Positions 18,473-64,000 of a DNA stretch of 64,000 nt are shown here, in pieces. The notes beneath the pieces were generated by a model that did not search any database, was not told where the DNA came from, and was given only the letters and a program-made list of their open reading frames with translations. Location: positions 73,756-137,755 of the forward strand of contig CAVSYG010000001.1 in NCBI GenBank assembly GCA_963732055.1, given 5' to 3'. This DNA is from an uncultured Bacteroidota bacterium (lineage in GTDB: Bacteria > Bacteroidota > Bacteroidia > Chitinophagales > Chitinophagaceae). A program made the translations under genes and the position numbers. Positions within the stretch are counted from its first letter, which is position 1; each line of letters begins with the position of its first letter.

Positions 18473-21400
18473 ATGTTTAAGACCCTAACTCATAATTCCC
18501 GGTTTGAATTCAGGAATTATTTCCTATTACCCCTGCTTTTAGTTTTTGCATTCAATTTTGCCTACACTCAGAATGCAATTGTCACTGAAAATTTAAATGC
18601 TGGTGTTCCCGCATCCCAGTGGGATATTCCTTTAAATAGTAATGGCACATTTGGAGACAAAACCATACAGGGTTTCGGCACCGATATCAGTGTAAACGTT
18701 GGCGGTACTATCAATTTTAAGATAACGGTTACGTCAGGAACGGATAAGTCATTCGGAATTAAAATTTACCGTATTGGATATTATCAGGGAAACGGAGCCC
18801 GCCTGATAGCAGATCTTGGTACTGCTTTTACCGGAATCACACAAAATGCCTGTTCGTTTGACAATACAACCGGGCTCACAGATTGCGGTAACTGGACGAC
18901 CAGCGCAAGCTGGACTGTCCCGTCTACAGCTGTTTCGGGACTGTATGTTGCCAAATTAACCCGGTCAGCTGCCGGTGGTGGTGGTTCCAGTCATATTGCT
19001 TTTATTGTTCGAAATGACGCCAGTACTTCCCAACTCTTATTTAAGACATCCGATGCCACCTGGCAGGCTTATAATCCTTATGGTGGATACAGTCTGTATG
19101 TCGGTGCCGGTATGCCATTCAATCATGGCGATAAAGTGAGTTATAACCGGCCGTATCTGACAAGAGACGGCGGGGGAGGCGGAGGAGCATCCGAGGATTT
19201 CTTTATGAATGCGGAATATCCCATGATCCGTTTCCTTGAAAGAAACGGCTTTGATATCAGTTATACAACTGACGTAGACATGGCGCGTAGCACAACTAAC
19301 CCTGTCACAAACCATAAAGTTTTTCTTTCTGTCGGTCATGATGAATATTGGTCGAAGGAAGAAAGAAATACAGTTGAAGCGGCACGTACGGCAGGAAAAA
19401 ACATGGCTTTTTTTAGCGGAAATGAAGTTTACTGGAAAACCAGATGGGAAAATAGTGTGGATGGCACAAGTACTCCTTTTCGCACAATGGTTTGTTATAA
19501 GGAAGGCACACTACCTACACCCGGAGAAAATGCATGCGGCGGGAAATGTGATCCCAGCACTGAATGGACAGGATTGTGGCGTGACGGATGCAGCTTTCCG
19601 AATGATAATGCCTGCAAACCTGAAAACGCTCTCAGCGGAGAGATCAGCTGGGATGGGACCACAAGTGCCATCATGGTACCTGATACTTACAAAAACTTAA
19701 GATTTTGGCGGAATACCTCGGTAGCTACATTGGGAGCTGGCCAAACTGCTACTATGACTCCAGGAACTCTGGGTTACGAGTGGGATTGGGAACAATATCA
19801 GAGTAGTTATCCACCCGGTCGCATTACGATGTCAAACACATCTTTTGATGGACATGTCCATAAATTATCGTTTTATAAGTCCTCTGCGGGTGGATTTGTC
19901 TTTGGTGCCGGATCAGTACAATGGTCATGGGGTCTTGATGCCAATCATGACAGTAATGAACAGGGAGGTGGTGGTGCCGCTACTGTGGCCATGCAACAGG
20001 CAACGATCAATTTGTTTGCCGATATGGGTGTACAGCCAGCCAGTATTCAAACAGGTCTTACTGCTGCTACCGCAACTACCGATGTTACTCCCCCGGTAAC
20101 CAAATTTACTTCACCGGCCACTGGATCAACCTTTACTTCATTATCACCTATCAGTTTTTCAGGAACTGCCACTGATGTCGGTGGAGTCGTTGCCGGCGTC
20201 GAAATCTCATTTGATGGAGGTGCGACCTGGGCAGCTGCAACAGGAACAACCAGTTGGACTTATTCCTGGACTCCTATCGGGAATGGAACATTTACAGTGA
20301 TTGTTCGCGGCATTGATGATTCCGGTAATTACACTGCAACAGCGTCTTCTCCTTCCATCACCATTACAATGAACGCTACTGCTCAAAATTGCCCATGTAC
20401 AATTTTTGGAACGACTGTCCCGACTGTGACGGTGACAAATGATAATGCGGGCGGAATTGTGGTTGGTACGAAATTCCGTTCAGCATTGAACGGAACTGTT
20501 ACGGGTATCCGCTTTTACAAGGCTTCGGGTAATAGTGGCACCCATCAGGGCCTGTTGTATAGCAATACAGGAACATTATTAGCCCAGGCAACATTTACCG
20601 GCGAAACGGCCACAGGATGGCAACAGGTAAGTTTTAGTAATCCGGTTACTATAACTGCAGGTACAACTTATGTTGCTTCCTATTTCAGCAGCAGTGGCAA
20701 TTATAGTTCGACAAACAATTATTTTTCACAAGCAATCGTAAATAGTCCTTTGACAGGTCTGGCAGACGGTACAGACGGAACAAATGGTGTTTATATATAT
20801 GCCTCTGCACCAGCCTTTCCTATTAATTCCTATCAAAAAGGAAATTACTGGGTGGATGCTGTATTTACCAATACGAACACCATTACGGCGAACGCTGGAA
20901 CTAACCAAACGATCACTTTGCCTCTGTCAACCATAACGCTCAATGGCAGTGCTTCTACTGGCGCAATCACCAGCTATGCGTGGACTGTTGTTTCCGGACC
21001 CAACACACCAACTATCACAACTTCAACCGCAGTTACGACAACCGTGACCGGATTGATCCAGGGAACTTATGTGTTCCAACTTTCAGTAAATGGTGGAGCA
21101 AGCACAGCACAGGTTACCATACTTGTAAATCCTCTTCCTCCACCCATGGCAAATGCAGGTCCCAAACAAACCATTACTTTACCCACTTCAACTGTAACTC
21201 TCAATGGCAGTGGTTCAGCGGGCACAATTACCAGTTATTCATGGAGTTTAATTTCGGGTCCTAATACACCTACCATTGCAACCCCCACAACAGTAAAGAC
21301 GACTGTTACAGGTCTGATTCAGGGCACATATATTTTTCAGCTTGCTCTGAATGGAACAGTCAGTACAGCAAGAGATACTGTAATCGTAAATGCCGCTGCC

Positions 21401-24400
21401 GCACCTGTGGCGAATGCGGGAAGTAATCAGACGATCACGCTACCGGTTTCATCGGTTACACTCAATGGTAATGGATCAACGGGTACAATAACCAGTTATG
21501 GCTGGACGAATATCTCCGGACCTAATACACCGGTAATTACAACACCTTCCAATGTTTCAACAACCGTCACCGGATTGATCCAGGGCAGTTATGTATTTCA
21601 GCTTTCATTAAATGCAGGCGCCAGTGTTTCTCAAGTTACCGTAACTGTAAATGCAGTTTCAACCTCCACCACTATATTCACAACACAAACACCGGCGGGG
21701 CCTACCGAAAATGATGCTTTGGCACTTGAGCTCGGAGTGAAATTCCGGACAAATACGGCTGGTTCTATCACCGGCATTCGCTTCTACAAGACGACTGGGA
21801 ATTCAGGCACCCATATAGGAGAATTGTATTCTTCTACCGGCACCCGGTTGGCACAGGCAACATTTACAGGCGAAACGGCGACCGGATGGCAACAAGTGCT
21901 CTTTAGTTCGCCCGTGGCAATCACGGCAGGTACAACCTATGTCGCTGCTTATTTCAGCAGTTCCGGTAACTATACCAGCACATCAAACTATTTCACGACC
22001 GCAGTAGTGAATGGTCCGATTACTGCTTTGGCAGATGGAACAGATGGCTCCAACGGAGTATACAGATATTCTACAACGGCTGTTTTCCCTTCCAGCACAT
22101 ACCAAAAAAGTAATTACTGGGTGGATGCCATATTTTCTTCCGGGCCTGTTGCACCGGTTGCAAATGCGGGTGCTAATCAGACCATAACATTACCAACGTC
22201 TAGGTGTCACACTGAACGGCAGTGGCTCTACAGGCGCAATCAGCAGTTATTCATGGACGTTAGTATCCGGACCAAACGTGCCGGTAATTACTACGCCCAC
22301 TACCGTGTCGACAACAGTAACCGGATTAATACAGGGAACTTATGTGTTCAAATTATCTTTAAATGGTGCCGTAAGTACTTCTCAGGTTACCATTACTGTA
22401 AACGCTGCACAGACTGTCGTTGCAAATGCGGGGGCTAATCAGACGATCGTCTTGCCGGCGTCTTCTGTAACACTGAATGGCAGCGGTTCAACCGGTACCA
22501 TTAGCAGTTATTCATGGACGTTAGTATCCGGACCAAACGTGCCGGTAATTACTACGCCCACTGCCGTGTCGACAACCGTGACCGGATTGATCCAGGGAAC
22601 TTATGTGTTCCAACTTTCAGTAAATGGTGGAGCAAGCACAGCACAGGTTACCATACAGGTAAATCCTGCTCCGCCACCTGTTGCTAATGCGGGCCCCAAA
22701 CAGACTATTACGTTACCGACTTCAACGGTGACTCTTAACGGCAGTGGTTCTACCGGCACCATATCCAGTTATGCCTGGAGTTTTGTTTCGGGTCCCAATA
22801 CACCTACTATAACAACTCCTACAACTGTAAAGACAACTGTTACAGGTCTGATTCAGGGCACATATATTTTTCAGCTTGCTCTGAATGGAACAGTCAGTAC
22901 AGCAAGAGATACTGTAATCGTAAATCGCCGCTGCCGCACCTGTGGCGAATGCGGGAAGTAATCAGACGATCACGCTACCGGTTTCATCGGTTACACTCAA
23001 TGGTAATGGATCAACGGGTACAATAACCAGTTATGGCTGGACGAATATCTCCGGACCTAATACACCGGTAATTACAACACCTTCCAATGTTTCAACAACC
23101 GTCACCGGATTGATCCAGGGCAGTTATGTATTTCAGCTTTCATTAAATGCAGGCGCCAGTGTTTCTCAAGTTACCGTAACTGTAAATGCAGCTTCAACCT
23201 CCACCACTATATTCACAACACAAACACCGGCGGGGCCTACCGAAAACGATGGTTTGGCACTTGAGCTCGGAGTGAAATTCCGGACAAATACGGCTGGTTC
23301 TATCACCGGCATTCGCTTCTACAAGACGACCGGGAATTCAGGCACCCATATAGGAGAATTGTATTCTTCTACCGGCACCCGGTTGGCACAGGCAACATTT
23401 ACAGGCGAAACGGCGACAGGATGGCAACAAGTGCTCTTTAGTTCGCCCGTGGCAATCACGGCAGGTACAACCTATGTCGCTGCTTATTTCAGCAGTTCCG
23501 GTAACTATACCAGCACATCAAACTATTTCACGACCGCAGTAGTGAATGGTCCGATTACTGCTTTGGCAGATGGAACAGATGGCTCCAACGGAGTATACAA
23601 ATATTCTACAGCGGCTGCTTTTCCTTCCAGCACATACCAAAAAAGTAATTACTGGGTGGATGCCATATTCTCTTCCGGGCCTGTTGCACCGGTTGCAAAT
23701 GCGGGTGCTAATCAGACCATAACTTTACCAACTTCCACAGTTACACTGAACGGCAGTGGCTCTACAGGCACAATCAGCAGTTATTCATGGACGTTAGTAT
23801 CCGGACCAAACGTGCCGGTCATTACTACGCCCACTGCCGTGTCAACAACTGTAACCGGATTAATACAGGGAACTTATGTGTTCAAATTATCTTTAAATGG
23901 TGCCGTAAGTACTTCTCAGGTTACCATTACCGTAAACGCTGCACAGACTGTCGTTGCAAATGCGGGTGCTAATCAGACCATCGTCTTGCCTGCGTCTTCT
24001 GTAACACTGAATGGCAGCGGATCTACAGGTACTATTTCCAGTTATGCATGGACCAGGATTTCAGGTCCGGGCACACCCATAATTGCAACACCCAGTGGTG
24101 TAACAACTTTGGTAACCGGACTGGTACAGGGTACTTATGTATTTCAACTTTCACTAAATAGTGGCGCCAGTGTATCACAAGTAACCGTGAATGTGATTCC
24201 CGCTTCCACACCCGTAACTATTTTTACTACACAGACACCAACGGTAACCACGTCGAATGACGGGATCGGCATTGAAACAGGTGTAAAATTCCGCAGCAGT
24301 GTTGGCGGGACAATTACAGGCGTTCGCTTTTATAAAACATCCGGCAACACGGGTACTCATACAGGTGAACTATATTCATCAATTGGTGCAAGACTCGCCC

Positions 24401-27150
24401 AGGCGGTCTTTACAAATGAAACGGCCACAGGATGGCAGACGGTAATATTCAGTTCGCCTGTGCCAATTACTGCCGGTGTAACATATATCGCCGCTTGTTA
24501 CAGCAGTAGCGGAAACTACATAAGCACAGATAATTATTTTAATACAGCCGTTGTTAACGCACCATTGACCGCCCTGGCTGACGGAACCGACGGGCCAAAT
24601 GGTGTGTTTGTATATGGAAATGCTGCTGCGTACCCAGCGAATTCGGGTTCAAAGACTAATTATTGGGTAGATGCGATTTTTAACGGTTCGGTTAATACGG
24701 TCGATGTAACTCCTCCGGGAATAATAGTAACCAGTCCGGCAGCTGCTGCAACCAATGTATCCGCGAATTCATCTGTCAATGTATTCTTCAATGAAGAATT
24801 AAATCCGTCAACTGTGTCAGGTAATACTGTTTTCCTCCAGAATGGAACGACCAACATTGCATCCTCTGTGATCAATAATACTGAAGGAGGCGTGACGCTG
24901 ACACCTTCCGCACCGCTTAATCCCAACACTGTATATACGGTTACGGTAAAGGGCGGAACTGGTACAAATAAAATTACAGATGTCGCAGGAAACGCTTTGA
25001 CAAAAGATACGGTTTGGAGTTTCACTACAGCTCCCAAACCAACCGTGGCAATCCCTGCTAACGGACCCGGTGGTCCGATACTGCTGATTAGCTCCGCCTC
25101 AAATGCATTCAGCCGTTATCCAGTCGAAATACTGCGTGCCGAAGGTTGGAATGCTTTTAACGCATTGGATATTTCAGCTGTCACAACAACAGAAATAAAC
25201 AAATACGATGTGGTTGTTGTCGGAGATATTACTCTAACGGCCGCACAGGTAACCATGTTAACAAACTGGGTAAATGCAGGCGGAACGTTGATTGCATTTC
25301 ATCCGGATCCACAATTGTCTGCATTGCTGGGAATTTCTTCAGCCGGCGGAACAATGTCAGATAAATACCTGCTTGTAAATACGGCAACAGCGCCCGGACT
25401 CGGTATTGTGAACCAGACTATTCAATATCACGGCGTTGCCAATCTGTATAATGTAAATGCAGGTACCAATATTGTGGCTACTCTTTATTCAGATGCAACA
25501 ACGGCGACCATTTATCCGGCCGTGACCAGCAGGAATGTCGGAACACTCGGTGGACAGGCTATTGCGTTTGCATATGATCTGGCGAAATCGGTTGTATATA
25601 CAAGACAGGGCAATCCGGCTTGGGCAGGACAGAACCGCGACGGGCAGGATGCCGTTATTCGTGCGGATAATTTATTTTTTGGCAATGCATCTTTTGATCC
25701 GCAGCCGGATTGGGTAAACCTGAATAAGGTAGCCATACCGCAGGCAGATGAACAACAAAGATTATTCACGAATATTATAGTGGCTGGGAATTTCGATCGT
25801 AAACCATTACCGAGGTTCTGGTTCCTTCCGAAGGGGAAGAAAGCGGCTGTTGTGATGACGGGTGATGATCATGCGAACGGTGGAACCATGGGCAGATTTA
25901 ATAGATACCTGGCACTCAGTAGTTCAAATACACCCAGTGATGTGGCTAACTGGAATGCAATCCGGAGTACGTCATATATGTATCCGTTCTCTCCCATAAC
26001 TAATGCGCAGATCGCAATATATCAGAACCAGGGATTTGAACTTGCATTTCATCTGAATCCGAACTGCAGTGTATGGACACCTAGCCAACTTCAAAATTAT
26101 TTTAGTAGCCAGATGTCAGATTTCACAGACGAATATTATGTAGCGAATCCGCTGGCAACACATCGTATCCATTGTCTTTCATGGAGTGACTGGGCCACAT
26201 TGCCAAAAACAGAAGTTCAGCTTGGCATCCGTCTGAATGTGAGTTATTATTACTGGCCGCCTTCCTGGATTAATAACAGACCGGGTATGTTTACAGGATC
26301 TGGTATGCCTATGCGTTTTGCAGATACTGACGGTAGCCTGATTGACAACTACCAGGTGCCCAGTTATATGACTGATGAATCCGGTCAGACTTATCCCATG
26401 ACGATCGATTCACTGTTACTTCGTGCGACCGGGGCACAGGGGTATTATGGCGTTTTCTGCGCAAATATGCACACAGATGATTCTGCTTCTGCCGGTTCGG
26501 AAGCAATCATTGCTTCGGCACAGGCATTGCAAATTCCCGTGGTGTCTTCCAAACAAATGCTCGATTGGCTGGATGCAAGAAATAATTCTACATTCTCAAA
26601 TTATACCTGGTCAAACGGCACATTGGGCTTTACAGTAACACAGGATCCTAAGGCGCTGAATTTAAAAGGCATGTTACCGCAAACTATTTCCGCGGGTAGT
26701 TTTATTTCACTTACTCAAAACGGATTAGCTGTTAATACCACGATTGAAACCATTAAGGGAATTAGTTATGTTTTCTTTGATGCAAGCAACGGTAATTATG
26801 TCGCGACATATGCAGTAACCGCTCCTGGTGCCGGCAGTAATCCTGCTTTGGCTCAAATTGCACCGGCCTCAGAGTCTGATTCAACAAACTTCACGAATTA
26901 CCTGGGTCAGAATTATCCTAATCCATTTAGTCTGAATACAAGAATCAATTATAGTATTGCTGCAAGTAATGTCGTTGAATTGATTTTATACGACATGCAG
27001 GGAAGGCCGGAAAAAGTTATGGTAAATGAAGTAAAAAAAGCAGGTAACTATGTTTACGATTTGAATACGGGTAACCTGGCGAAGGGAGTTTATTTCTACA
27101 GAATCCGTTCCGGAAGTTTTATCGATGTAAAAAAACTGATTATTCAATAA
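18473..27150 (+). CDS. Giant T9SS-secreted multidomain protein (~2,891 aa after removing two +1 insertions): DMFase-beta-like domain, Ig-like domain, 4x DUF4082, 9x PKD-like repeats, SbsA/Big_5-like Ig, shared ~585-aa module, CTD
   Basis: Track ORFs 18473..22438, 22278..22961 and 22942..27150 join into one frame. The insertions at ~22203 (extra G) and 22926 (extra C) are shown by the internal duplicate copy. Motifs TWQAYN, VGHDEYWS, GxKF..TGIRFYK..NYWVD, ANAGxNQTITLP, and CTD LGQNYPNPF..LAKGVYFYRI. Confidence 0.85.
21037..24025 (+). repeat. Intragenic tandem duplication, unit ~1,533 bp (511 aa: PKD repeats plus one DUF4082)
   Basis: ACCGTGACCG at 21041 recurs at 22575, ACTGTTACAGGTCTG at 21302 recurs at 22836, and CCGGATTAATACAGGG at 22321 recurs at 23855 (offset 1534 each, including one spurious inserted base). 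Confidence 0.92.
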
Positions 27151-27542: not shown

Positions 27543-30500
27543 ATGTATCAGAAAACTTTACCCTATGTCAGGGGAATAAAATATTTTATTATTTTATTCC
27601 TTGCATTTTTTTCCTTCCATTCCTCCTTTTCCCAAAATCCGATTGTTACTGAGAATGCACAGATAGGGACACCTGCTTCAACTTGGGATATTCCAACAAA
27701 AGATGCTGGTGATTCTTCTATCCAGGGATTTGCGACGGATATTAGTGTAAATGTTGGTGGTACGATAAACTTTAAAATTGATGTCAATACGGGAACTGAT
27801 AAGACTTTTAATATTTCAATTTATCGAATAGGTTATTATCAGGGGAACGGCGCGCGTCTGATTGCTGATTTAGGACCGGGCTTTACTTTTAACGGTATCG
27901 CCCAGGGTGGTTGTAACTATGATGGTGCAACGGGTCTTACTGATTGTGGAAACTGGACTACCACGGCTTCATGGAATGTTCCTGCAGGCGCTGTATCTGG
28001 ACTATATATCGCTAAACTTACAAGGTCGGCAGCAGGCGGTGGAGGGACCAGTCATATCCCATTTGTCGTACGAAATGATGCTCCAACAAATACCTCTGCA
28101 CTTTTCTTTAAGACTTCGGATGCTACCTGGCAGGCTTATAATAATTATGGAGGCAACAGTTTATATGTCGGAGCTGGCTTACCGAATAACCATGCATCAA
28201 AAGTCAGTTACAATCGTCCCTTTCTTACCCGCTCAGGTGGTGGGGGCGGTGCCGCAAGGGAAGACTGGTTTATGAATGCCGAGTATCCAATGATCCGTTT
28301 TCTGGAGTCAAACGGATTTGACGTCAGTTACACTACGGATATGGACCTTGTTCGCAATAATGTAAATAATATTAATCTTTTATTGAATCATAAAATATTT
28401 CTGTCAAACGGCCATGATGAATATTGGTCCAAGGAAGAAAGGAATACCGTTGAAGCAGCAAAAGCGGCTGGAAAAAATCTGGCTTTCTTCAGCGGAAACG
28501 AAATATATTGGAAAACAAGATGGGAAAACAGTATTGATGGTACAAGTACTCCTTTTCGTACCATGGTATGTTATAAAGAAGGTGCACTGCCAACAGCCCA
28601 GGAAAATGCCTGTGGAGATAAATGTGATGTTTCAACAAACGAATGGACAGGCTTATGGCGAGACGGATGTAATTATACCGGTGTGACGGACGCATGTAAA
28701 CCTGAAAACGCATTATCCGGGCAGATCAGCTGGGACGGAATTCCGGGCACAATAACAGTTCCTGATACTTATAAAAATTTAAGATTCTGGCGTAATACAG
28801 CTGTAGCCACGCTGGGAACCGGGGTAACGCAAACACTCACCAATGGAACATTGGGATACGAGTGGGATTGGTTTCAATATAGCAGTACGTATCCGCCGGG
28901 AAGGGTTAGGATGTCAAGCACTACATTAGACGGCCGGATACATAATTTATCCTTATACAAAGATGTAACCAGTAAAGCCCTGGTATTCGGTGCAGGGACG
29001 GTACAATGGGCCTGGGGACTAGATGCCAATCACGATATCAATGAGCTAAGTAATGGTGGTGCTGCCGATCGAAATATGCAGCAGGCTACGATCAATCTGT
29101 TTGCAGATATGGGCGTTCAGCCGGCTACAATTCAAAGTCCGCTTACCATTGCTACGCAATCAACAGATATTACACCGCCTGTTACAACAATTACATCACC
29201 GGCCAATGGTACGCAGATACCGGAAAGCGCAACTTTCAATATTACGGGAACTGCCACAGATGTGGGTGGTGTAGTTGCAGGCGTCGAAGTATCCGTAGAT
29301 GGCGGCCTCACCTGGCAACCCGCTACCGGTACGACGAACTGGAGTTTTTCCTGGCTGCCAACTGCGCAGGGGACTGTAACGATAAAAAGTCGTGCTTTTG
29401 ATGATATCGGAAACCTGGAATCTCCCGGTGGAAGTGAAGGTTCGGCTAATACCGTAACAGTATCAGTAGTTTCAGGTACACCGCCAACAAACTGCCCTTG
29501 CTCTATATTATACACAACCGTCACAAAGCCCGACCAACAATAATGATCTGAATCAACATGATCGGACCGGGTGGCATCACAGTCGGCGTAAAATTTAAAG
29601 CTGATTTTGATGGTAAAATTACACGGAATCAGATTTTTTAAAGCGCCTCTTGATAACGCGACGACAGATGAACACGTGACATTATATGCATATAAGTCCG
29701 GATGGTGGAGTCAGCCCTGGAACGGCGATAGCTACTGCCAGTCTGCCATCAAATTTTACGCATGATCAGGTAAACGGAGAGTGGGCAGAGGTTTTATTTG
29801 CAACGCCTTTTCAGATTACGGCAAATACTGTTTATGTAGCTACTTATTATAGCCCTACCGGATATTACAATGCTACCGATAATTCTTTTACAAATCCGGT
29901 TGTAAATGGTCCGCTGGCTATATTGAAGGATGGTGACGAGGGCGTTAATGGTGCATATATTTACGATGACGCATACCCGACTAATGGATTTCAGGCATCC
30001 AACTATTGGGTCGATGTAGATTATTCAAACGGCGCTGATATTACACCACCAACGGTTATTTTTAATAATCCTGCATCAGGTGCGACGAATATCAACATCA
30101 ATAGTTCAATTTCAGCTACATTCAGCGAGAATATAAACCCGTCTACGGTAACCGGAGCTACTTTTGTATTAAAAGATGGTTCGGGAAATATAATACCTGG
30201 AACCGTCAGCTATTCTGTTGGCACAAGGTCAGCGACTATACTTTTGTCATCTCCCCTCGATTATTCCACACAATACTTTGCTACGGTTACTGGTGGAGCT
30301 TCAGGAATAAAAGATCTGGCGACCCCTACCGCCAATGCCATGGTATCTGATTTTATATGGAGCTTTACAACAGTTCCCGTTCCGGCAATTCCGCCCGATG
30401 ATGGATCGGGTGGACCCATATTGATTGTTAGCAGTAACCTGAACCCGTATAGTCGGTACCTTGTAGAAATACTTAGGGCACAGGGATATACCGCTTTCAA

Positions 30501-34846: not shown

Positions 34847-34888
34847 ATCACAATTATTGCTTTATGCTTTACGCTTTAGGCCTTACGC

Positions 34889-49152: not shown

Positions 49153-49172
49153 ATTAGAAATAAAAATGTAGG

Positions 49173-50096: not shown

Positions 50097-50136
50097 TCAG
50101 GTGATTATTTCTATGGTTAATGGTTGATAAGTTCGT

Positions 50137-50835: not shown

Positions 50836-50844
50836 CTGGATGTT

Positions 50845-52107: not shown

Positions 52108-52111
52108 TATT

Positions 52112-53230: not shown

Positions 53231-53232
53231 TC

Positions 53233-54603: not shown

Positions 54604-54645
54604 CAGGAAAACTTATAAAATGTTATCACAACAAAAGAAAATTTC

Positions 54646-55662
54646 TTAGATATTTTTTTTAATTTTTTTAACCAGATTTTTCAAATAAACTATTGGATGA
54701 ATCATCATTAATTTATTTAAAAACATTTTCTTAAACCCCCGTGTGTTGTATGTAACAACAATCCATTTTTCAATGAGAATTTGGTAGCAAAGAAATGCAT
54801 TATAATTACCGTTTTTTTTAAGATATGAATATAATTTCACCATCCAGTTCTCGAGGCTGCGGATTCTATCAGGATTTCCAAAGAAGAAAGCATTATAAGA
54901 TAGTGCATTTGAATGAACATCCAGTTCGGATTTTGAATATTCAATTCCCAGATCATCGAGTATCCTTTTGTTTATCTTATTGACATGTGCAAACATGATT
55001 TCACTTTTTCTTGTACTCATATTGTTGTCATGCACCCTATACAAAGTTGTAAACTCCGGCAGGTTTAATATTTTTCCCGTCCGGGATATCCTGTACCAGA
55101 GATCATAGTCTTCGCATACCTGAAAGTTCTCATCATATTTAAGGTCTTTTGCAATACCCGTGCGCATCATGATCGCGGAATGACAAAAGCAATTGTGTAA
55201 TAGCAGATAGGACTGGGCATCCCGGTTATTCGCGGGGAACGTAACGTTTTTTAGGAATCTGCCGTTTGAATCAATCGTTTGAAAGTAACTGCCACACAAG
55301 TCATAATCCGGATTTTCTGATAGGAATCTGACTTGTTTTTCGAGCCGGTATGGCAGGGCAATATCATCTGCATCTATTCTGGCAATATATATACCATTTG
55401 ATTCCCGAAGACCTCTGTTCAGCGAGAATATAATTCCTTTGTTACCGTCGTTTGGGAAGTATTTTATTCTTTTATCCTGATATTTCAGGATCAGATTTTC
55501 AGTACTGTCCGTTGAGCCATCGTTGATAATAACCAGTTCCCAGTTCCGATAGGTTTGAGCCAATATGCTATCCAGAGATTCTGCCAGATATTTTTCCCCA
55601 TTATATACAGGAAGTACGATGGAAACCAGCGCCGCTTGTTCGTCGTTTAAATTTATTGCCAT
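54646..55662 (-). CDS. GT2 glycosyltransferase
   Basis: VSIVLPVYN, INDGSTD, ARIDADD and EDYDLW. Confidence 0.92.
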   Translation of the reverse strand: MAINLNDEQAALVSIVLPVYNGEKYLAESLDSILAQTYRNWELVIINDGSTDSTENLILKYQDKRIKYFPNDGNKGIIFSLNRGLRESNGIYIARIDADDIALPYRLEKQVRFLSENPDYDLCGSYFQTIDSNGRFLKNVTFPANNRDAQSYLLLHNCFCHSAIMMRTGIAKDLKYDENFQVCEDYDLWYRISRTGKILNLPEFTTLYRVHDNNMSTRKSEIMFAHVNKINKRILDDLGIEYSKSELDVHSNALSYNAFFFGNPDRIRSLENWMVKLYSYLKKNGNYNAFLCYQILIEKWIVVTYNTRGFKKMFLNKLMMIHPIVYLKNLVKKIKKNI

Positions 55663-55723
55663 CAATATTTACCGGAAATTATTGAAGAATTTTAAATATG
55701 CCTGTTAAAGCCGGTAAAAACTC

Positions 55724-57007
55724 CTAACCGTAGTTAAATAGTATTTTTCTGAATATAATTACCATGATAACGAAGTAGAGCAAATTGCCGACCGCATATC
55801 CGATCGTAGCGCCTACTGTTCCGTATAATGCCACAAAACCACAGCTAAAGACTACCTGTCCTGAATAACTGACAAATTCCATAGTTATATACGTTTTTGT
55901 CATTGCTTTTGCAATCATCAGATATCCCAATATCCATCCCGCCATTTTAAATATATCTCCAATAAGCTGAAAACCAAATAATTCCTGCATGCCGGCAAAT
56001 TCCTTTGTAAATAATATCTGAATTATTAATTTTCTTAAAAAGTATATGACAATGGTAGCGGCAATGAGCAGGGGGATAATCAATTTATAAACGCTGAAGA
56101 TTTCCTTTCTTAACTCATTTTTGTTTCTGAGTTCAGCCAGTCTCGGCAGATAATATACGCTCAGTGATGTTGTTATAACCAGGAGGTACATAATGGAGAT
56201 TCTGTTTATTCCCTCCCATAATCCGGCGCTGGTTATGGATTCATGGTTCTTGATATAACTCCTGATAATCAATTGACTAACTGGCACCACGATGGCGCTT
56301 ACAAGAGCCATGACTGAATAATGAGCGAGTCTGCCGGTTACCAGTTTGCTAAATTTTCTTGTAAATACCCGCCATTCAAACCAATAGGATTTGTGAATAA
56401 TCCCCAAAGTCAGAAGGAAAACGATCGATTGAAATGTAACTACCGAGATCAGAGCGCCTGAAACGCCATATCTGATGGATAGTATAACAGAGAATATCAG
56501 GCCGACGATACTACCCAGGATATTCGCAATGATGTATTTTTTATATTCTTTAAACCCGTTTATTACGGAAATCAGTAATGCATTTAAAGCATATAAAATG
56601 ATCGTACAGCCAAAAAAATAAAAAACGAACCTGTATTTTTCGTCAAGCAATATGATTTTGGAAAAATATCCGGCACCCGCGATCAACGCAATGCTCGTCA
56701 GGATTGAAAAGAATATGGTGACCCAGAATCCCGTGCCGAGAAAAAGGAGATATTTTTTTCTGGAACCGGAATATTCAGATACATACTTTGTCATTCCGGC
56801 ATTAATACCGCCGCTGGATATGCCCAGGGTAATCGTTGAAAAATTATTCAACTGGCCGAGCAAAGCAATACCCGCCGGCCCGATTATTGCCGCTACAACT
56901 TTTACGCTGACCAACCCTGTGAGCATTTTAATGACTGTGGAAACGGCATTCAGGGATGAAACCTTCACCAGATCGGTCGAAAAAGCTTTTCTTAATTTGA
57001 CTATCAC
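55724..57007 (-). CDS. wzx: O-antigen/EPS flippase (WzxE-like)
   Basis: 12-14 TMs, IGPAGIALLGQ, GLWEG..RIS..Y, VYYLPRLAE and QLIGD..K. Confidence 0.88.
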   Translation of the reverse strand: MIVKLRKAFSTDLVKVSSLNAVSTVIKMLTGLVSVKVVAAIIGPAGIALLGQLNNFSTITLGISSGGINAGMTKYVSEYSGSRKKYLLFLGTGFWVTIFFSILTSIALIAGAGYFSKIILLDEKYRFVFYFFGCTIILYALNALLISVINGFKEYKKYIIANILGSIVGLIFSVILSIRYGVSGALISVVTFQSIVFLLTLGIIHKSYWFEWRVFTRKFSKLVTGRLAHYSVMALVSAIVVPVSQLIIRSYIKNHESITSAGLWEGINRISIMYLLVITTSLSVYYLPRLAELRNKNELRKEIFSVYKLIIPLLIAATIVIYFLRKLIIQILFTKEFAGMQELFGFQLIGDIFKMAGWILGYLMIAKAMTKTYITMEFVSYSGQVVFSCGFVALYGTVGATIGYAVGNLLYFVIMVIIFRKILFNYG

Positions 57008-57269
57008 GTTTGAATTAGAATTATAAGTGACCGGGACAGAAACAGCTACGCCACCTCAGTCCCACAGAAAGGACCAATTTAATCAAATTTTGGTTGTAAC
57101 CGTCACAATACCAGCGAATTATACTGGTTTGTCTTTATGCTTACTAAAAACGCATAAAAACCCGATTTAAGTATTTGGAATTGATATTGATTTTAGAATC
57201 CTTACTCTGAGTCTGAACAGGAAACAGTTGTTCTTGCAAGGACGTGATCGGGGAGAGGTCTCCGGTCGA

Positions 57270-59642
57270 TTATACTGTTTTCTTCTTCCTGGCTTTTCCG
57301 TATGAATCGTAAGAAGATTTATAATCGTAACCGTAACCATAACCATAGCCATAGCTATATTGGCCAATACCTCTTTTCTTTATACCATTAAAAATCAAAG
57401 CCACGTTTTTAATATTATGGAATTCCATATTCTCTTTAAGCATTTTAATATTGTTTTTTCGCACTTTGCCATGCCGAATCACATATAGTGTATAATCGCA
57501 GAGTGGTGCAATCACATACACATCTGTTATAGGATTTATAGGTGGCATATCAATAATCAGTATATCCACTTTAGTGTTTAAATAATCCAGAAATACTTCA
57601 ATTTTCCCGTTGAGTAATAACTCTGATGCGTCCTCTTCAAGATGGCCGGCCTGTACGAAATATAAATCAGGGTTAAAAGGGGTTTGTAATAAAATCTCAG
57701 ATTCAGAAACCTTGCCCATCAGATAATCCGTGATCCCGACACCTCTTTCCAACCCAAGCAATTCACAGATAGAAGGCTGATGTAGATCCAGCTCAAGTAA
57801 GGCTACTTTTTTATTATTTCTCGTTATCAGGTTGGCCAGATTGGTCGCTATAAAGCTTTTTCCTTCGCCTTCTATGGATGAAGTAAATACGATCCTTTTT
57901 ACATGTCCGGGTGTGTCAGAAAGGTTCTTTACCGCTGATCTCAGCAATCGAAATTGTTCGATGATAAAACTTCTTTCTTTTGTAGCTGTTATCAGACCGT
58001 TCTGGAACTTTCCTTCGATGATTTCGCCGATAACAGGAAAATTTGTCAGCGCTTCAATATCGCTTCTGTATAGTATTTTATTGTTGAGTATATTTTTCAA
58101 TGATATGATCGTACTACCCAGGGCAAAGGGAAAAACCAGGGCCATCAGATAGATTAAACCTCTTTTTGGACTTACCGGCGTAACGGTAGATGTCGCTTTA
58201 TCAACAATATAACTATCAGGCAGTACAGAACTCATTGTATACGAAGCCGCTTCTTCTCTTTTTTGTAAAAGGAATGAATATATTTCAGCGGTGATATTTC
58301 TTTGCCGGCTGACTTCTACCAGTTCCTTTTCTTTCTGGGGTATGGCATTCGCCATCGCTGAGTCGCGATTGGATATTTTGTCTACATATGATTGGTTGGT
58401 CTGCAGATTCGCTTTCTGGCTCTTAATTGTTTCAAGTACCGCCGATTCGTTCTTTACAATTTCATCCTTTATAGAAGAGAGAATAGGATTGTTTTCAGCG
58501 GTCGTTTTACGAAGCCTTGCATATTCGCTTTGGGCATTGTGTAATTTTTCCAGCAATTGGTTCAGCGTAGGGTCCGTTATTTCAAAGGTGGAAGGCACTA
58601 CACTGGAAGTATCATTTTTTGTTTCCAGGTAGTGTTGAACCTCATCCAGCACATTCATCTGCATTTTCATCTTATTTTTCTGCTGGTCGTTCGTCGTCAT
58701 ACTTTGCAGATACAAACGGCTCTGCTCACTGATATCCACAATCCCGGTTTTGTTACGGTATTTCTGAATACTGTTATCTACTGAATCAAGTTGATATTTA
58801 ACATTTTTTAGTCTGTCTTCTATAAAACTCAAAGTGCTGGCAGCAATATCGCTCTTCTGTTTAACCGCATTCTGATTGTAAGAAGTGACTATATTGGTTA
58901 TGATCGCCTCCCCTTCTTCCGGAACGGGATCTTTTATTTTTAATGTTATAACAGAAGATTGTTTACTGGTCGGAGCCGCAACCAGATTTTCACCAAGAGC
59001 ATCCGTTTCATTAACCAGGCTTATAAGAGAGAAAAAGTATTTTACTTTTGACTGGTCCTTGCCAATAGAATTGTATAACCCATAATGTGGATTCTGAATA
59101 AATCGTATCACGCCCCATTCCGTCTTTGCCCATTCATTCAGGGGGTAAACCTTGCCTGCGATTTCTACATTGTTTGTATTAGGCGCAATACTAAAATATA
59201 CCTTTTTGACTTCAATGATGGATCCGGGGTCCGACACTTCCAGTATAACCGGACTGGTTAAATAGGCATTTCTTTTGATCATTCCACGCCATCCTGATTC
59301 TGTGTAAATAGGCGCATACAACCTCATTTTGGTCACAACATCTATAATCACCTCATTTGACCGTATAATTTCCAATTCATTTTCAACAATTTTTTTCGTG
59401 TTGAAAAGATTTAGCAATTCTTCCATTTTCGAATCTTCCTGACCTTTTTTTTCATCCTTTATCAGAATGCTGGCCGAAGATTCATATACGGGAACAGTAT
59501 ATTGGAGGTACACAAAGGCAAGAGCCAGACTGAACAGGAGCAAAACAGCAAAAAAGGGCCAGTAGGGCAGATATTTAATTGCCAGGTGCTGAAAAAAGTT
59601 CTCATTATCAGCATCCGTTGCAATTGGCTGCTTTTTTTCCAT
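57270..59642 (-). CDS. wzc: Polysaccharide co-polymerase / BY-kinase
   Basis: Two TMs flanking a coiled-coil periplasmic region, Walker A TSSIEGEGKS, Walker A' LLELDL, Walker B IIDMPP, and a C-terminal tyrosine cluster YSYGYGYGYGYDYKSSYDSY. Confidence 0.95.
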   Translation of the reverse strand: MEKKQPIATDADNENFFQHLAIKYLPYWPFFAVLLLFSLALAFVYLQYTVPVYESSASILIKDEKKGQEDSKMEELLNLFNTKKIVENELEIIRSNEVIIDVVTKMRLYAPIYTESGWRGMIKRNAYLTSPVILEVSDPGSIIEVKKVYFSIAPNTNNVEIAGKVYPLNEWAKTEWGVIRFIQNPHYGLYNSIGKDQSKVKYFFSLISLVNETDALGENLVAAPTSKQSSVITLKIKDPVPEEGEAIITNIVTSYNQNAVKQKSDIAASTLSFIEDRLKNVKYQLDSVDNSIQKYRNKTGIVDISEQSRLYLQSMTTNDQQKNKMKMQMNVLDEVQHYLETKNDTSSVVPSTFEITDPTLNQLLEKLHNAQSEYARLRKTTAENNPILSSIKDEIVKNESAVLETIKSQKANLQTNQSYVDKISNRDSAMANAIPQKEKELVEVSRQRNITAEIYSFLLQKREEAASYTMSSVLPDSYIVDKATSTVTPVSPKRGLIYLMALVFPFALGSTIISLKNILNNKILYRSDIEALTNFPVIGEIIEGKFQNGLITATKERSFIIEQFRLLRSAVKNLSDTPGHVKRIVFTSSIEGEGKSFIATNLANLITRNNKKVALLELDLHQPSICELLGLERGVGITDYLMGKVSESEILLQTPFNPDLYFVQAGHLEEDASELLLNGKIEVFLDYLNTKVDILIIDMPPINPITDVYVIAPLCDYTLYVIRHGKVRKNNIKMLKENMEFHNIKNVALIFNGIKKRGIGQYSYGYGYGYGYDYKSSYDSYGKARKKKTV

Positions 59643-59698
59643 ATTCAAAGGGTTTTATACAGTATCATATACCACGCTGTAACGTATTATTACTTGCT

Positions 59699-60514
59699 TT
59701 ATTTTCTATATTCAATCGCACTGATGGTTATGATTAATAATGATACCACGCTCAATATGATGGGTGTAACCTGGGCAAACCTTTCCTTCTTTTCCCTGTT
59801 TTGACTTGGTTCAACATAAATGACATCATTTGACTTCAGGTAATAGTAGGGTGAAGTAAACAAACCACTGGAGGTCAGGTCTATTCTTACGATCAATTTA
59901 TCGCCCTTATCGTCTTCCCGAATCAGTAACACATTGTCTTTCTTACCATAAATAGTTATATCTCCAGCAAAACTCAGGGCTTCCAGCAAACTGATTTTTT
60001 CATTCGGAGTAGTATAAACTCCGGGTTTGGACACCTCACCCAAAACACTTACTCTGAAATTCAATTGCCTAATGGTTACAATCGGATCAATTAATTGTTT
60101 TGTATCCACCAGTTGTTTCGTTAAAAGAGCCTGCAACTGAGATTTAGTCAGGCCCTGCGCATGTATTTTCCCTAAGACGGGAAACAAAATGTCCCCATTC
60201 AGATTTACCAGGTAGCCGATCGTCAGGGTATTGCCAAATGATGTAGCAGAGCTGGTTGTTGGGGTGGATTCATTGGGTGCATTAAAAATGGCTGAAGCCG
60301 TAGGGTTGGCACTACTTACAGTAATGCTAAGCAAATCATTGATTTGAATAAATGATTCAATATTAGGAGGGAATTTGCTTTTTATCGTGACATTGTCGAT
60401 ACCGTCAAAATAGATAATCTTTTTTGTGCCGCAGGAAGATGTGAATAAGGTTAGAATTATTAACAAAAATGCTGAAGAACTTTTGAGTTTTGTCCGAAGG
60501 GTCGTTTGATACAT
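59699..60514 (-). CDS. wza: Polysaccharide export lipoprotein (OPX/Wza)
   Basis: Lipobox TSSC, DLLSITV, GDILFPVLG, VSVLGEV and SLBB motif ALSFAGD. ATG 60514 is preferred over TTG 60538. Confidence 0.92.
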   Translation of the reverse strand: MYQTTLRTKLKSSSAFLLIILTLFTSSCGTKKIIYFDGIDNVTIKSKFPPNIESFIQINDLLSITVSSANPTASAIFNAPNESTPTTSSATSFGNTLTIGYLVNLNGDILFPVLGKIHAQGLTKSQLQALLTKQLVDTKQLIDPIVTIRQLNFRVSVLGEVSKPGVYTTPNEKISLLEALSFAGDITIYGKKDNVLLIREDDKGDKLIVRIDLTSSGLFTSPYYYLKSNDVIYVEPSQNREKKERFAQVTPIILSVVSLLIITISAIEYRK

Positions 60515-61221
60515 AATAAGTAATACGTTGATTATCAATTTTTTATATATGAGTTAATAAGTGTGTTTCTGCTCGGTTGATCAGTTGATCTTCTGATGTA
60601 AATACTGTACCCTGAAATTTTTATAAGAATGCTGGATTATATTTCTCACCATTCCTGACTACTCTTTTTGATGAGTCCGGGAAAATCAAGTTAAGCACTT
60701 TGAATAGCTGTAAACTTTTCCGGCAGAAGGATATGTGGAATTCCTCAAAACTATATCAGGTAGCTATCGAGGCTTAAAGATAGAAATTTTTATCAAAGAT
60801 CTATGCATGTGTTAACAAATTGGAATACAATTAAATTGACCATCATTTGACTGAAAAATTGCGGAAAATTATATATAAAATATGTGGTTTCCCAAATCGG
60901 GAATATTTCCTCGTTGAGGACAGATTCCCATACTGATATTTCAAAAAGGGCTAAGAGATTTTTCTGATTTTTATATTTAATTGCTAAAAAAAATTGTGAA
61001 TAATTGTGTCACAAAATGTGGATTACTTTTAATTCTCTCAGGATCAGAATTTTAATCCCGAAAATGTTGTAGCATTTATTCAACAATTCTCATTCGGAAA
61101 TTTTTGGCAAGTAATTTGAACACGTTCGGGTAGTTTGAAAATATTAACTAAGAAGACGTTAATATTTAGAATTTAAAATCCAAACGAGAAGTTATCCAAT
61201 ATCATCCAATATCCACCGACT

Positions 61222-64000
61222 ATGGAAATCCAACTTTACACACAAAGAGGCCTTGTCGTATTTAGTTCTGTAGTAAAGAAGATCAAAAACAAGGCGGACA
61301 AACTTCTCCTGCTATCCTGTGCTATATGTATCCATCTTGCCGGTCTCGCACAGACCACCAATTTATCTTTCACACAAATACCTCTGACGGACCCGGAATT
61401 TCTGAGACCCGGAGCGGGCGCTAATGAATGGTCTTACGATCAGAATATTGTAAATATCCCTACACAGGGAACAAATACACAACGACTCGACAGATATTGG
61501 CGTTTTACCTGGCTGGATTTTCAACCCGCCAATGGTTCGAGTGGTTCTTATGATTTTTCAGTCTTCGATTCTAAAATTCAGCAATCAATTTCTAAAGGAC
61601 AAACTTTCAGCTTTGGAGTAATGCAACAATGCGGAGGTTGTGACGCGAATTTACAGACCAATATTTCCGGCGCTGTGATGCTTTATCCAACCTGGTTACA
61701 CAACCAAATGCAAGGTGAATCAGTAAAAGATTTTATTTCTGGTGGTGAGTGGTTCCCGAACTATAACAGCGCGTCATATCTGACTGCTTTAAAGAATCTG
61801 AATGTCGCGATTAATAATCATATTCTTTCAGGCTCTTATAGTGGCGTACGTTATCAGGACGTAATCGGTCAGATCGATATACGTGGATATGGGGATTTCG
61901 GAGAGTGGACAAACAACGTTTTTACAAATGGAAATTTAACTGTTGCAAGCGGTGACAGTATTATCTCTTATCACGTTCATGTATTTGATAAGTTCCAATG
62001 CGTTTACATGATGGCCACGGTAGACGGTGGTCAGCTTAGTAATACAAATGTCCCTCCGGGCGTAGGGTATTATGCTTTGACTGCTTCAAATTCGGTTGGT
62101 AAACTGGGATGGCGAAGAGACTCATGGGGCCAGACGGATAACTACCTTTCTCAATGGACGGATGCAAACCCGACTGTTTTTAATGGACTTTCCTTCAAAA
62201 CAGAAATAATGAATCGTTACCAGTTTGCTCCGATAGTGGGTGAGCCTCAGGACGGTGGGTCAGCTGGGAATTTCACCTCTCTGGCAGCACAAATGACGAA
62301 ATACGGTGTAACTAGTTTCGGTAATGGTAATTTTAATAATGGTGTTAATGCAACGATACAAAATAGTTTCAGGGCCGCTTCAAAGGCAGCCGGATATCGT
62401 ATAGTATTAACGGGTGGAAGCATGACCACAACGCTGACCGGTGGGAACACATTTAATGTCTCTCTGAATTGGCAGAATATCGGCGCCGCACCCGACTATA
62501 AAAATTGGAATGCTACATTCGAACTAAGAAGTTCGACTAATGCCGTAGTATGGACAGGAACTTCTTCATTTAATCCGAGATTATTTTTACCATCCGGGAC
62601 ACCCTCAGCCATCAGTGATAATTTTACACTTCCTTCCACCGTTCCGCAAGGCACATATAGTATGTATCTCATAATAAGAGATCCGGTCGGATTCCGCAAA
62701 CCGCTTCCTCTTGGTATAACAGGCGTCAATTCCGATGGAAGTTATTTGCTTAGAAGCAATATTACCGTTGGGACTGGTACAGCAAATCAACCACCTACTG
62801 CAAATGCAGGCGCTGATCAGACAATCACGTTGCCGGCATCCACCGTGTCTCTGACTGGTTCCGGAACAGATGCAGGCGGATCAATAGCTTCTTATTCCTG
62901 GGCAAAATTGTCTGGTCCGGCATCTGGAACCATTGCTACAACAACGACAGCCAACACAAATATTACCGGATTAGTTCAGGGTGTATATGTTTTTGCCCTG
63001 ACTGTAACTGATAATCAGGGGGCGACAGCAACAGATAATGTGCAGATTACAGTGAATGCTGCCACGGCGCCTGCAAATCAACCTCCTGTTGCAAACGCCG
63101 GTGCAGATCAAACCATCCAGTTGCCAACATCTACTGTTTCGTTGACCGGAACAGGAACAGACGCGGATGGTACGATTGCATCTTATGCCTGGACTAAACT
63201 TTCTGGCCCTGCAGGTGGAACCATAGTTACACCAACAGTTGCAAATACGAACATTACCGGTTTAATACAAGGTGTATATGTTTTCACATGTACCGTAACA
63301 GATAACCAGGGTGCAACGGCTACAGACAATGTTCAGATAACAGTTAATGCTGCTACGGTACCTTCAAATCAACCTCCTGTTGCAAACGCCGGTGCAGATC
63401 AAACTATCCAGTTGCCAACATCTACTGTTTCGTTGACCGGAACAGGAACAGACGCGGATGGTACGATTGTATCTTATGCCTGGACTAAACTTTCTGGCCC
63501 TGCAGGTGGAACCATAGTTACACCAACAGTTGCAAATACGAACATTACCGGTTTAATACAAGGTGTATATGTTTTCACATGTACCGTAACAGATAACCAG
63601 GGTGCAACGGCTACAGACAATGTTCAGATAACAGTTAATGCTGCCACGGTACCTTCAAATCAACCTCCAGTTGCAAATGCCGGTGCAGATCAGACTATCC
63701 AGTTGCCAACATCTACTGTTTCGTTGACCGGAACAGCGACAGATGCAGACGGAACGATTGCATCTTATGCCTGGACTAAACTTTCTGGCCCTGCAGGTGG
63801 AACCATAACTACGCCAACGGCTCCAAATACGAATATTACTGGTTTAATACAAGGTGTATATGTTTTCACATGTACAGTAACGGATAACCAGGGTGCAACG
63901 GCAACAGACAATGTTCAGGTAACAGTCAGTGCTGCTACGGTACCCGCAAATCAACCTCCCGTCGTAAATGCCGGTTCAGATCAGACGATCCAGTTGCCAA
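61222..64000 (+). CDS. Large exported protein missing from the ORF track (runs off the right edge): GH-A-like/DUF4832 region followed by at least four PKD-like repeats
   Basis: I translated it from ATG 61222 and found no stop up to 64000. Signal-like LLLLSCAICIHLAGLAQ, then GYGDFGEW, IVGEP, AGYR, WQNIGAAP, KPLPLGI and SDGSYLL, then NQPPxANAGADQTIxLP repeats. Confidence 0.85.
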   Translation, partial: MEIQLYTQRGLVVFSSVVKKIKNKADKLLLLSCAICIHLAGLAQTTNLSFTQIPLTDPEFLRPGAGANEWSYDQNIVNIPTQGTNTQRLDRYWRFTWLDFQPANGSSGSYDFSVFDSKIQQSISKGQTFSFGVMQQCGGCDANLQTNISGAVMLYPTWLHNQMQGESVKDFISGGEWFPNYNSASYLTALKNLNVAINNHILSGSYSGVRYQDVIGQIDIRGYGDFGEWTNNVFTNGNLTVASGDSIISYHVHVFDKFQCVYMMATVDGGQLSNTNVPPGVGYYALTASNSVGKLGWRRDSWGQTDNYLSQWTDANPTVFNGLSFKTEIMNRYQFAPIVGEPQDGGSAGNFTSLAAQMTKYGVTSFGNGNFNNGVNATIQNSFRAASKAAGYRIVLTGGSMTTTLTGGNTFNVSLNWQNIGAAPDYKNWNATFELRSSTNAVVWTGTSSFNPRLFLPSGTPSAISDNFTLPSTVPQGTYSMYLIIRDPVGFRKPLPLGITGVNSDGSYLLRSNITVGTGTANQPPTANAGADQTITLPASTVSLTGSGTDAGGSIASYSWAKLSGPASGTIATTTTANTNITGLVQGVYVFALTVTDNQGATATDNVQITVNAATAPANQPPVANAGADQTIQLPTSTVSLTGTGTDADGTIASYAWTKLSGPAGGTIVTPTVANTNITGLIQGVYVFTCTVTDNQGATATDNVQITVNAATVPSNQPPVANAGADQTIQLPTSTVSLTGTGTDADGTIVSYAWTKLSGPAGGTIVTPTVANTNITGLIQGVYVFTCTVTDNQGATATDNVQITVNAATVPSNQPPVANAGADQTIQLPTSTVSLTGTATDADGTIASYAWTKLSGPAGGTITTPTAPNTNITGLIQGVYVFTCTVTDNQGATATDNVQVTVSAATVPANQPPVVNAGSDQTIQLP
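62785..64000 (+). repeat. Tandem 291-bp (97-aa) PKD-like repeats
   Basis: The AAT CAA CC (NQP) unit starts at 62785, 63076, 63367, 63658 and 63949, an exact 291-bp period. Units 2 and 3 are near-identical. Confidence 0.95.

Follow-up and report, generated by a model that had tools for sequence, protein, structure and literature searches.

The window analysed here is a 64,000-nt stretch of contig CAVSYG010000001.1 (assembly GCA_963732055.1, positions 73,756 to 137,755 of the forward strand) from an uncultured soil Chitinophagaceae, whose genome comprises 4.76 Mb in 14 contigs. It carries three tandem genes on the + strand, named A, B and C (18473–34834), which converge on a polysaccharide locus on the - strand (34889–60538). 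The predicted domains and a modelled fold suggest that, on balance, the products of A, B and C probably work in the periplasm and at the surface as a toolkit for removing N-acyl groups from the cell's own polymer. Domain content, conserved residues, fold, export signals and gene neighbourhoods were computed, and from these we infer the substrate, the reaction and the compartments.

In the proposed mechanism, the locus would build a Wzx/Wzy-dependent polysaccharide whose repeat unit starts with glucose-1-phosphate and bears N-acylated amino or diamino sugars. These sugars would be made by WbpB/E/D-like GFO, DegT and hexapeptide enzymes, with an Arn/Gtr-like formyl branch beside them. The products of A, B and C would act on the polymer once it is outside the cytoplasm. 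Protein C would work in the periplasm, because it has a Sec signal and no domain of the type IX secretion system (T9SS), and A and B would be exported by the T9SS and work at the cell surface. Two modules would strip N-acyl groups, for the most part N-acetyl but in this locus perhaps N-formyl as well. The head of A and B would be a mononuclear-metal amidase of the dimethylformamidase (DMFase) fold, and the module common to all three proteins a NodB/CE4-NDST1-type deacetylase that depends on a metal. Arrays of DUF4082, PKD and Ig domains may keep the enzymes on the polymer. The free amines left by deacylation would alter its charge, cohesion and recognition.

Layout of genes A, B and C

The + strand listing of open reading frames (ORFs), together with Pfam, gave five large ORFs in 18473–32724 followed by one ORF of 636 aa. 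They were assigned to three genes:

Gene A, 18473–27150, + strand, 2,891 aa after discounting extra bases 22202 and 22925, T9SS cargo; signal peptide, DMFase-like head (aa 31–540), Big_7, DUF4082, PKD and DUF4082 units, Big_5, deacetylase-like module (25021–26823), Por_Secre_tail
Gene B, 27543–32724, + strand, 1,725 aa after discounting extra bases 29510, 29562, 29624 and 29691; signal peptide, DMFase-like head, Big_7, DUF4082, Big_5, deacetylase-like module (30334–32160), Por_Secre_tail
Gene C, 32924–34834, + strand, 636 aa; signal peptide and deacetylase-like module only, without a T9SS domain

The three genes are tandem paralogs, and each encodes an N-terminal signal peptide. The DMFA2_C heads of A and B are 67% identical over 650 aa. 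In Pfam annotation, these two proteins also share Big_7, DUF4082 (five in A), Big_5 and the T9SS C-terminal sorting domain PF18962, which is not present in C. Common to A, B and C is a module of approximately 600 aa with 51–71% identity, which belongs to no Pfam or NCBIfam family. Neither the head nor the module is found elsewhere in the genome.

In gene A, a PKD-DUF4082 unit of 1,535 nt has recently been duplicated in tandem at 21392–24461 (copies 21392–22926 and 22927–24461). The first 300 nt of the copies are 100% identical and the other parts 96–98% identical. The duplication adds one DUF4082 and three PKD domains relative to the 2,479-aa ortholog in a genome of the same genus (G018).

The DMFase-like head

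The heads of A and B matched PF20254 (DMFA2_C) with 323 bits (E = 4e-96) and 313 bits (E = 5e-93), respectively, against a curated cut-off of 27. Twelve head domains from several phyla were combined into a profile with 60% mean column identity, which was searched against the PDB sequences. The best matches were N-acetyl-(R)-beta-phenylalanine acylase 8I5A/8HUY (E = 5.5e-16 and 1.8e-15), and the DMFase large subunit (6LVB) matched at E = 2.5e-9. In 6LVB, Y399, Y440 and E521 are metal ligands, H519 is essential and N547 binds water (PMC7686228). The profile alignment placed these five residues on positions that are invariant in the 12 sequences. Their counterparts are Y200, Y209, E291, H289 and N317 in A, and Y199, Y208, E293, H291 and N319 in B. 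The 2-Tyr-1-carboxylate ligand set, with the His and Asn of DMFase-type amidohydrolases, is thus complete in both proteins, and the DMFase-like character proposed by the first-pass annotation is borne out at the level of the whole site.

The DMFase large subunit of Paracoccus sp. DMF (6LVB; PMC7686228) and the acylase 8HUY/8I5A are, like the head, members of PF20254. All of them combine an Ig-like domain with a ThuA/GATase1-like catalytic domain and conserve the five active-site residues. The sequence similarity between the head and these solved structures is patchy (E = 1e-9 to 1e-16). DMFase and the acylase are cytoplasmic and hydrolyse small N-formyl or N-acetyl amides, whereas the head is predicted to be secreted. 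Unlike the two enzymes, the head is fused to DUF4082/PKD/Ig arrays and to a second, deacetylase-like module, and it is linked to polysaccharide loci.

The shared deacetylase-like module

An alignment of 34 modules, with 60% mean identity and many invariant polar residues, was used to build an AlphaFold2 (AF2) model. The model had a pLDDT of 88.8 and a pTM of 0.91. The top Foldseek match was the human N-deacetylase/N-sulfotransferase NDST1 (E = 1e-10 over 592 columns). The second was the GATase1-like domain of GH42 enzymes, which covered the N-terminal domain of the module. The next matches were polysaccharide and peptidoglycan deacetylases of carbohydrate esterase family 4 (CE4), namely Bc1974, BACOVA_03992, BA3943 and PdaA, with 4DWE and 5JMU also among them, all at a probability of 1.00. 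The module is therefore modelled as a distorted beta/alpha barrel of the NodB/CE4- and NDST1-like deacetylase fold, which fits the appeal of the first-pass annotation to NodB/CE4-fold enzymes. The search of the module sequence against the PDB chains gave no meaningful match.

The motifs TGDDH, NRTHC, TDES and N(M/A)HTD show little or no variation. In gene C, the invariant residues are D308, D309, H310, H376, R414, H416, D484, E485, H515 and D517. The Asp-Asp of CE4 motif 1, which supplies the catalytic base and a metal ligand in that superfamily, lies in (M/L)(T/S)GDDH, in which G, D, D and H are invariant in the 34 sequences. H515 followed by D517 (N-M/A-H-T-D) is the candidate for the catalytic acid His of CE4 motif 5, by analogy with PelA_DA rather than by residue-level superposition; PelA_DA (CE26) has an H488/D491 pair (PMC13254593).

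The closest known de-N-acetylases are PgaB and IcaB (CE4), PelA (CE21), Agd3 (CE18), B. cereus PelA_DA (CE26; PMC13254593) and the N-deacetylase half of NDST1 (9F6Z). The polysaccharide de-N-acetylases use a metal-dependent NodB-type barrel, are encoded with synthesis and export genes and deacetylate the polymer after translocation, and the same logic is proposed here. The three-domain layout of the module (alpha/beta domain, barrel and beta-sandwich) resembles that of Agd3, PelA_DA and NDST1. The module keeps the DD motif, and its His-then-Asp (HTD) recalls H488/D491 of PelA_DA. It differs from the known enzymes in having no Pfam, NCBIfam or PDB sequence match and in its HxxxH position, which is weighed below. 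It is also paired with a second, unrelated amidase fold, and it sits at a Wzx/Wzy amino-sugar locus and not at a synthase-dependent homopolymer locus.

The polysaccharide locus

The locus on the - strand carries a complete Wzx/Wzy set (WcaJ equivalog; Polysacc_synt; Wzy_C; Wzz, GNVR and P-loop; Poly_export and SLBB). Its parts are as follows:

34889–36274, - strand, initiating phosphoglycosyl transferase (Bac_transf), above the WcaJ equivalog cut-off (undecaprenyl-phosphate glucose phosphotransferase)
37302–47923, - strand, amino-sugar block: GFO1, DegT1, epimerase/dehydratase, GT2a, formyltransferase, hyp344, DegT2, hexapeptide N-acetyltransferase, GFO2, hyp612
41462–42409, - strand, formyltransferase; closest models PRK06988 and ArnA-N, below their cut-offs
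48046–60538, - strand, assembly/export block: three GT4, RmlD-like reductase, WcaF/WbbJ-like O-acetyltransferase, Wzy, GT2b, Wzx, Wzc, Wza
53233–54603, - strand, Wzy
55724–57007, - strand, Wzx
57270–59648, - strand, Wzc
59699–60538, - strand, Wza

The two GFO oxidoreductases are closest to UDP-GlcNAc 3-dehydrogenase. The short hexapeptide N-acetyltransferase is of the NeuD/PglB type, and the second hexapeptide acyltransferase is a WcaF/WbbJ-type O-acetyltransferase. GT2a was matched along its whole length by PgfS and ArnC, and DegT1 by ArnB and PseC, all below the cut-offs. hyp612 is a 612-aa multi-pass membrane protein without a recognised family, GT-C included. Two further conserved locus proteins, of 292 aa (36419–37297) and 344 aa (hyp344, 42406–43440), have no Pfam or NCBIfam family.

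The stretch from DegT1 through hyp612 (38391–47923) resembles an Arn/Gtr-type lipid-carrier side-branch pathway without the ArnD deformylase; Pfam annotation of the locus gave no ArnD/Polysacc_deac_1 gene. In common with the Arn pathway (ArnA/B/C/D/T, lipid A modification), the locus combines an aminotransferase with a formyltransferase, encodes both a polyprenyl-phosphate GT2 and a large membrane protein, and would need a NodB-fold deformylase; all matches are below the family cut-offs. It differs from that pathway in that its candidate deformylases are exported and would target a polysaccharide rather than lipid A.

Gene C and Bac_transf converge on a hairpin at 34818–34848, which has a perfect 12-bp stem (AAAAAAAGCCGCTGA-gtaa-TCAGCGGCTTTT) between an upstream A-run and a downstream T-run. 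The hairpin takes in the stop codon of gene C, is 41 nt away from that of Bac_transf and has the form of a bidirectional terminator. It escaped the consensus terminator scan and came to light on direct reading of the sequence; the wider stretch of 76 nt around it had an unremarkable fold z-score. A near-identical hairpin follows gene B (32741–32768), and the core common to both is GCCGCTGA...TCAGCGGC. The twin hairpins after B and C fit the duplication of a gene along with its terminator.

The first-pass annotation had described three tandem exported paralogs that converge on a Wzx/Wzy locus across a shared bidirectional terminator, with two aminotransferases, an N-acetyltransferase and a formyltransferase in the locus. 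The signal peptides, the common module, the hairpin and the annotated DegT, hexapeptide and formyltransferase genes all agree with this description.

A second wza/wzc/Bac_transf locus is present in the same genome (C6:718131-747311), with no DMFase-like or module gene nearby. The proposed action of A–C on the polymer of the window is supported by their position at this locus and not at the second one. Further upstream in the window lies an ordinary RND efflux operon (4658–10394; AcrB-type pump and outer-membrane factor), which is unrelated to A–C.

Distribution and gene neighbourhoods of relatives

The DMFA2_C-Ig-DUF4082 architecture was found in at least 7,134 protein clusters at E ≤ 1e-10, among 8,000 candidates scored, and relatives occupied at least 600 stretches in species genomes. 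Named sources label such proteins merely as "DUF4082 domain-containing protein". Four of six distant members examined in context lie beside or inside polysaccharide loci (Pedococcus, Geodermatophilus, Gillisia and Pontibacter). In Geodermatophilus, the last base of Bac_transf (8463–10001) is the first base of the DMFase-like gene (10001–16939).

Hidden Markov models were built from the locus proteins and used to scan the flanks of 78 loci outside the genus of the window. At least two exopolysaccharide (EPS) markers were found in the flanks of 33 loci from at least six phyla. DegT was the most frequent marker (27/78), followed by GFO and the hexapeptide transferase (20/78 each) and Bac_transf (12/78). 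By phylum, two or more markers were present in 7/8 loci of Pseudomonadota, 17/30 of Actinomycetota, 5/17 of Acidobacteriota, 1/3 of Verrucomicrobiota, 1/1 of Chloroflexota and 1/14 of Bacteroidota. For 49 loci on contigs covering all or most of both flanks, the expected number with DegT nearby was calculated from DegT copy number and genome size. DegT lay within 10 kb at 21 of the 49, against 0.97 expected (Poisson P of approximately 4e-21, uncorrected for phylogeny).

The formyltransferase was present at only 3/78 loci and Wzc at 6/78, and wza was found at none of the 78 with a weak single-sequence model. Neither the formyltransferase nor wza/wzc was retained as a mark of the associated loci. 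The expected co-occurrence with EPS loci was thus found for amino-sugar loci generally, and the emphasis that the first-pass annotation had placed on formyltransferases and on wza/wzc was not upheld. Given that formyltransferases are rare beside the relatives, N-acetyl is the likelier general substrate. The formyl group in the window may be a transient Arn-type protecting group that is absent from the finished polymer.

Head and module occur together at 32 of the 78 loci, with scores of 590–940 bits. The module is fused C-terminally, fused N-terminally or encoded by an adjacent gene. Within the genus, synteny is kept in all head-bearing genomes with long enough contigs, and the syntenic flanks include unrelated Omp85, MBL and CE2 genes. 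The locus marker hyp344 is present in four of five genus genomes with the head gene and in none of 17 without it. The arrangement in the window is typical of the family at large and unusual for its own phylum, since the genes usually stand alone in the 23 Bacteroidota genomes compared.

Points against the proposed role and frameshifts in A and B

Several points weigh against a de-N-acylating toolkit. Both large genes are interrupted as assembled, A into three ORFs and B into two. The canonical HxxxH metal motif of CE4 is missing from the module, which has a single invariant His at this position (H376 of C) and no His at +4; H310, H416 or a Cys may stand in for the second ligand. The head lacks the pentraxin-like domain II of DMFase, and the alignment jumps from DMFase residues 3–41 to 337–399. 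The large subunit of DMFase is active only together with a small subunit (PMC7686228). No small-subunit gene was evident between or beside A–C in the ORF listing, in which no profile search was made. Since domain II is absent and the small subunit is not evident, the head is, judged by its sequence, a relative of DMFase with the same active site and not DMFase proper. The DegT enrichment ignores shared ancestry, an objection against which the several gene orders and orientations can be set. Among the 23 Bacteroidota genomes outside the genus, compared by coordinates, only one of approximately 31 places lies within 20 kb of Bac_transf. The need for two deacylase modules in one protein is unexplained, and the family is known here from sequences and models.

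The three-frame reading showed that A is broken at approximately 22190 and 22930, and that B is broken several times within 29480–29700. These breaks trace to six single extra bases, at 22202 and 22925 in A and at 29510, 29562, 29624 and 29691 in B. Short-read contigs from other soil metagenomes, 94–99% identical to the window, lack exactly these six bases. Dropping them restores uninterrupted frames of 2,891 aa in A and 1,725 aa in B, with normal DUF4082 and PKD sequence over the joints. The orthologs in two genomes of the same genus (G018 and G010) have open frames of 2,479, 2,466 and 1,711 aa. We took both genes to be intact and their breaks to be consensus errors, because the extra bases are missing from related short-read contigs, the frames are restored without them and the same-genus orthologs are open. 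None of the six bases lies in a long homopolymer, and other apparent frameshifts of this assembly deserve equal caution.

If the deposited sequence is taken as it stands, with two frameshifts in A and four in B that also create in-frame stops, A and B would be real pseudogenes in this strain and only C and a further gene, G (described below), would be functional here. We give this little credence. Each break is one extra base that is missing from related soil populations, the restored sequence is well conserved, and the orthologs in G018 and G010 are intact. Four indels inside 180 nt without further decay also point to consensus error.

Alternative explanations

A–C could instead act on foreign substrates, such as chitin, peptidoglycan, the N-acetylated glycans of other microbes or the matrix of competitors, with their place beside the EPS locus being inherited synteny. 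The T9SS is a common exporter of polysaccharide-degrading enzymes, most of the Bacteroidota genes stand alone, far from Bac_transf, and the genus synteny takes in the unrelated Omp85, MBL and CE2 genes. We nevertheless regard this explanation as unlikely. The linkage to amino-sugar biosynthesis recurs in at least six phyla, in varied gene orders and sometimes inside operons, and within the genus the genes and the locus are present or absent together. Moreover, ORF and Pfam annotation of the window showed no SusC/D-type transporter or catabolic genes beside A–C. It is very improbable that A–C are mainly adhesins or matrix scaffolds, in which the enzyme-like domains merely bind polymer or are inactive. 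The very long PKD, Ig and DUF4082 arrays and the T9SS surface anchoring would suit such a role. So would the missing HxxxH motif and the existence of CE4 pseudoenzymes, with BA3943 among the Foldseek matches. Against this, invariance at 45–60% overall identity across phyla extends to all DMFase catalytic residues and to many polar residues of the module, and gene C consists of the module alone, with no repeat array.

The resemblance of the amino-sugar block to the Arn pathway suggests another role, in which GT2a loads an N-formyl amino sugar on undecaprenyl phosphate and C or the head deformylates it before transfer by hyp612, as a GT-C-like enzyme; the substrate would then be lipid-linked. 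The sub-cut-off matches of the formyltransferase, GT2a and DegT1, the multi-pass membrane nature of hyp612 and the lack of an ArnD gene in the locus are consistent with this step. However, ArnD acts on the cytoplasmic face and A–C are exported, hyp612 has no recognised GT-C family, and a formyltransferase is near just three of the 78 other loci. With this last count, Arn-like deformylation cannot be the general role of the family, and for the window itself we consider it quite improbable. De-N-acylation of the exported polymer by A–C remains the preferred explanation.

Gene G and probable phage chimeras

One further large gene diverges from wza at the other end of the locus:

Gene G, 61222–64000 and on to approximately 66807 beyond the window, + strand, 1,861 aa

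Gene G encodes a signal peptide, an unclassified 350-aa head with DUF4832, approximately 14 PKD repeats and a T9SS C-terminal domain with a typical C-terminal sequence. Beyond DUF4832, the head gave no match in Pfam, NCBIfam or the PDB, even in a permissive Pfam scan. Its AF2 model, from four sequences, had a pLDDT of 42 and was left out of the fold search. The DUF4082 unit and the G head gave no meaningful sequence match to PDB chains. Gene G had been described earlier as a PKD-repeat, glycoside hydrolase-like gene diverging from the other end of the locus. The repeats and the divergence hold. The hydrolase label, with DUF4832 alone being recognised, is a guess, as is the polymer-trimming role proposed with it. 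A paralog of the G head with 54% identity is located at C6:104186-105601, approximately 7 kb from another DegT gene (C6:97491).

Among homologs of the G head, fusions to PKD and DUF4082 domains are frequent. Two metagenome contigs of 64 and 74 kb encode such a protein of 954–1,123 aa (L104:10001-12865 and L105:10001-13372). Its N-terminal part is 51–55% identical to G over the head and PKD repeats, and its C-terminal PKD-DUF4082 part shares 55–63% identity with the units in gene A. The chimeric gene lies just upstream of a small PKD protein, with a weak holin match and an M15 endolysin-type gene further downstream. The contigs consist of co-directional ORFs without assigned function, apart from the weak holin match, the M15 endolysin-type peptidase and one virion-protein PHROG match, and by this gene content they are probably phages. 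In phage checks of L104, L105 and L108, seven upstream ORFs had no PHROG match, cultured phages gave no match, and one partial IMG/VR match was obtained. The chimera has the look of host modules put together into a tail or receptor-binding protein. Should the contigs be phage, such a protein would join both kinds of host protein that flank the locus, which would fit G and A engaging the same surface polymer.

Significance

The literature search found no paper tying DMFase-like or DUF4082 families to exopolysaccharides, in line with the first-pass annotation, which knew of no such system, and found nothing on the structure of beta-phenylalanine acylase. A polysaccharide de-N-acylase encoded with its own biosynthetic locus is a known kind of system. 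New here would be an amidase fold that is not known in that role, together with a divergent NodB-type module.

A wider reading can be put forward tentatively, and we find it plausible but slightly more doubtful than convincing. The head and the NDST1/CE4-like module would form a widespread and so far unrecognised two-enzyme system that de-N-acylates amino-sugar surface polysaccharides outside the cytoplasm, with C in the periplasm and A and B at the surface. Such chemistry would then be what the rare 2-Tyr-1-carboxylate iron amidase fold naturally does, and the module would be the first member of a new family of carbohydrate esterases. The tail-type protein of the probable phages, with its G head and PKD-DUF4082 part, would mark DUF4082 as a polymer-recognising domain.

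Partial de-N-acetylation sets the cationic, adhesive and biofilm-forming character of poly-N-acetylglucosamine (PNAG), Pel and galactosaminogalactan. To our knowledge, the enzymes known to carry it out on polymers all have NodB-type folds. DMFase is known for breaking down a man-made solvent. If the proposed role is true, thousands of soil and water bacteria use a second, unrelated fold, the DMFase iron amidase, for de-N-acylation of heteropolymers rich in diamino sugars, often alongside a divergent NodB-type module. That would account for the origin of the DMFase fold, give DUF4082 a function and provide more enzymes for tailoring N-acylated glycans.

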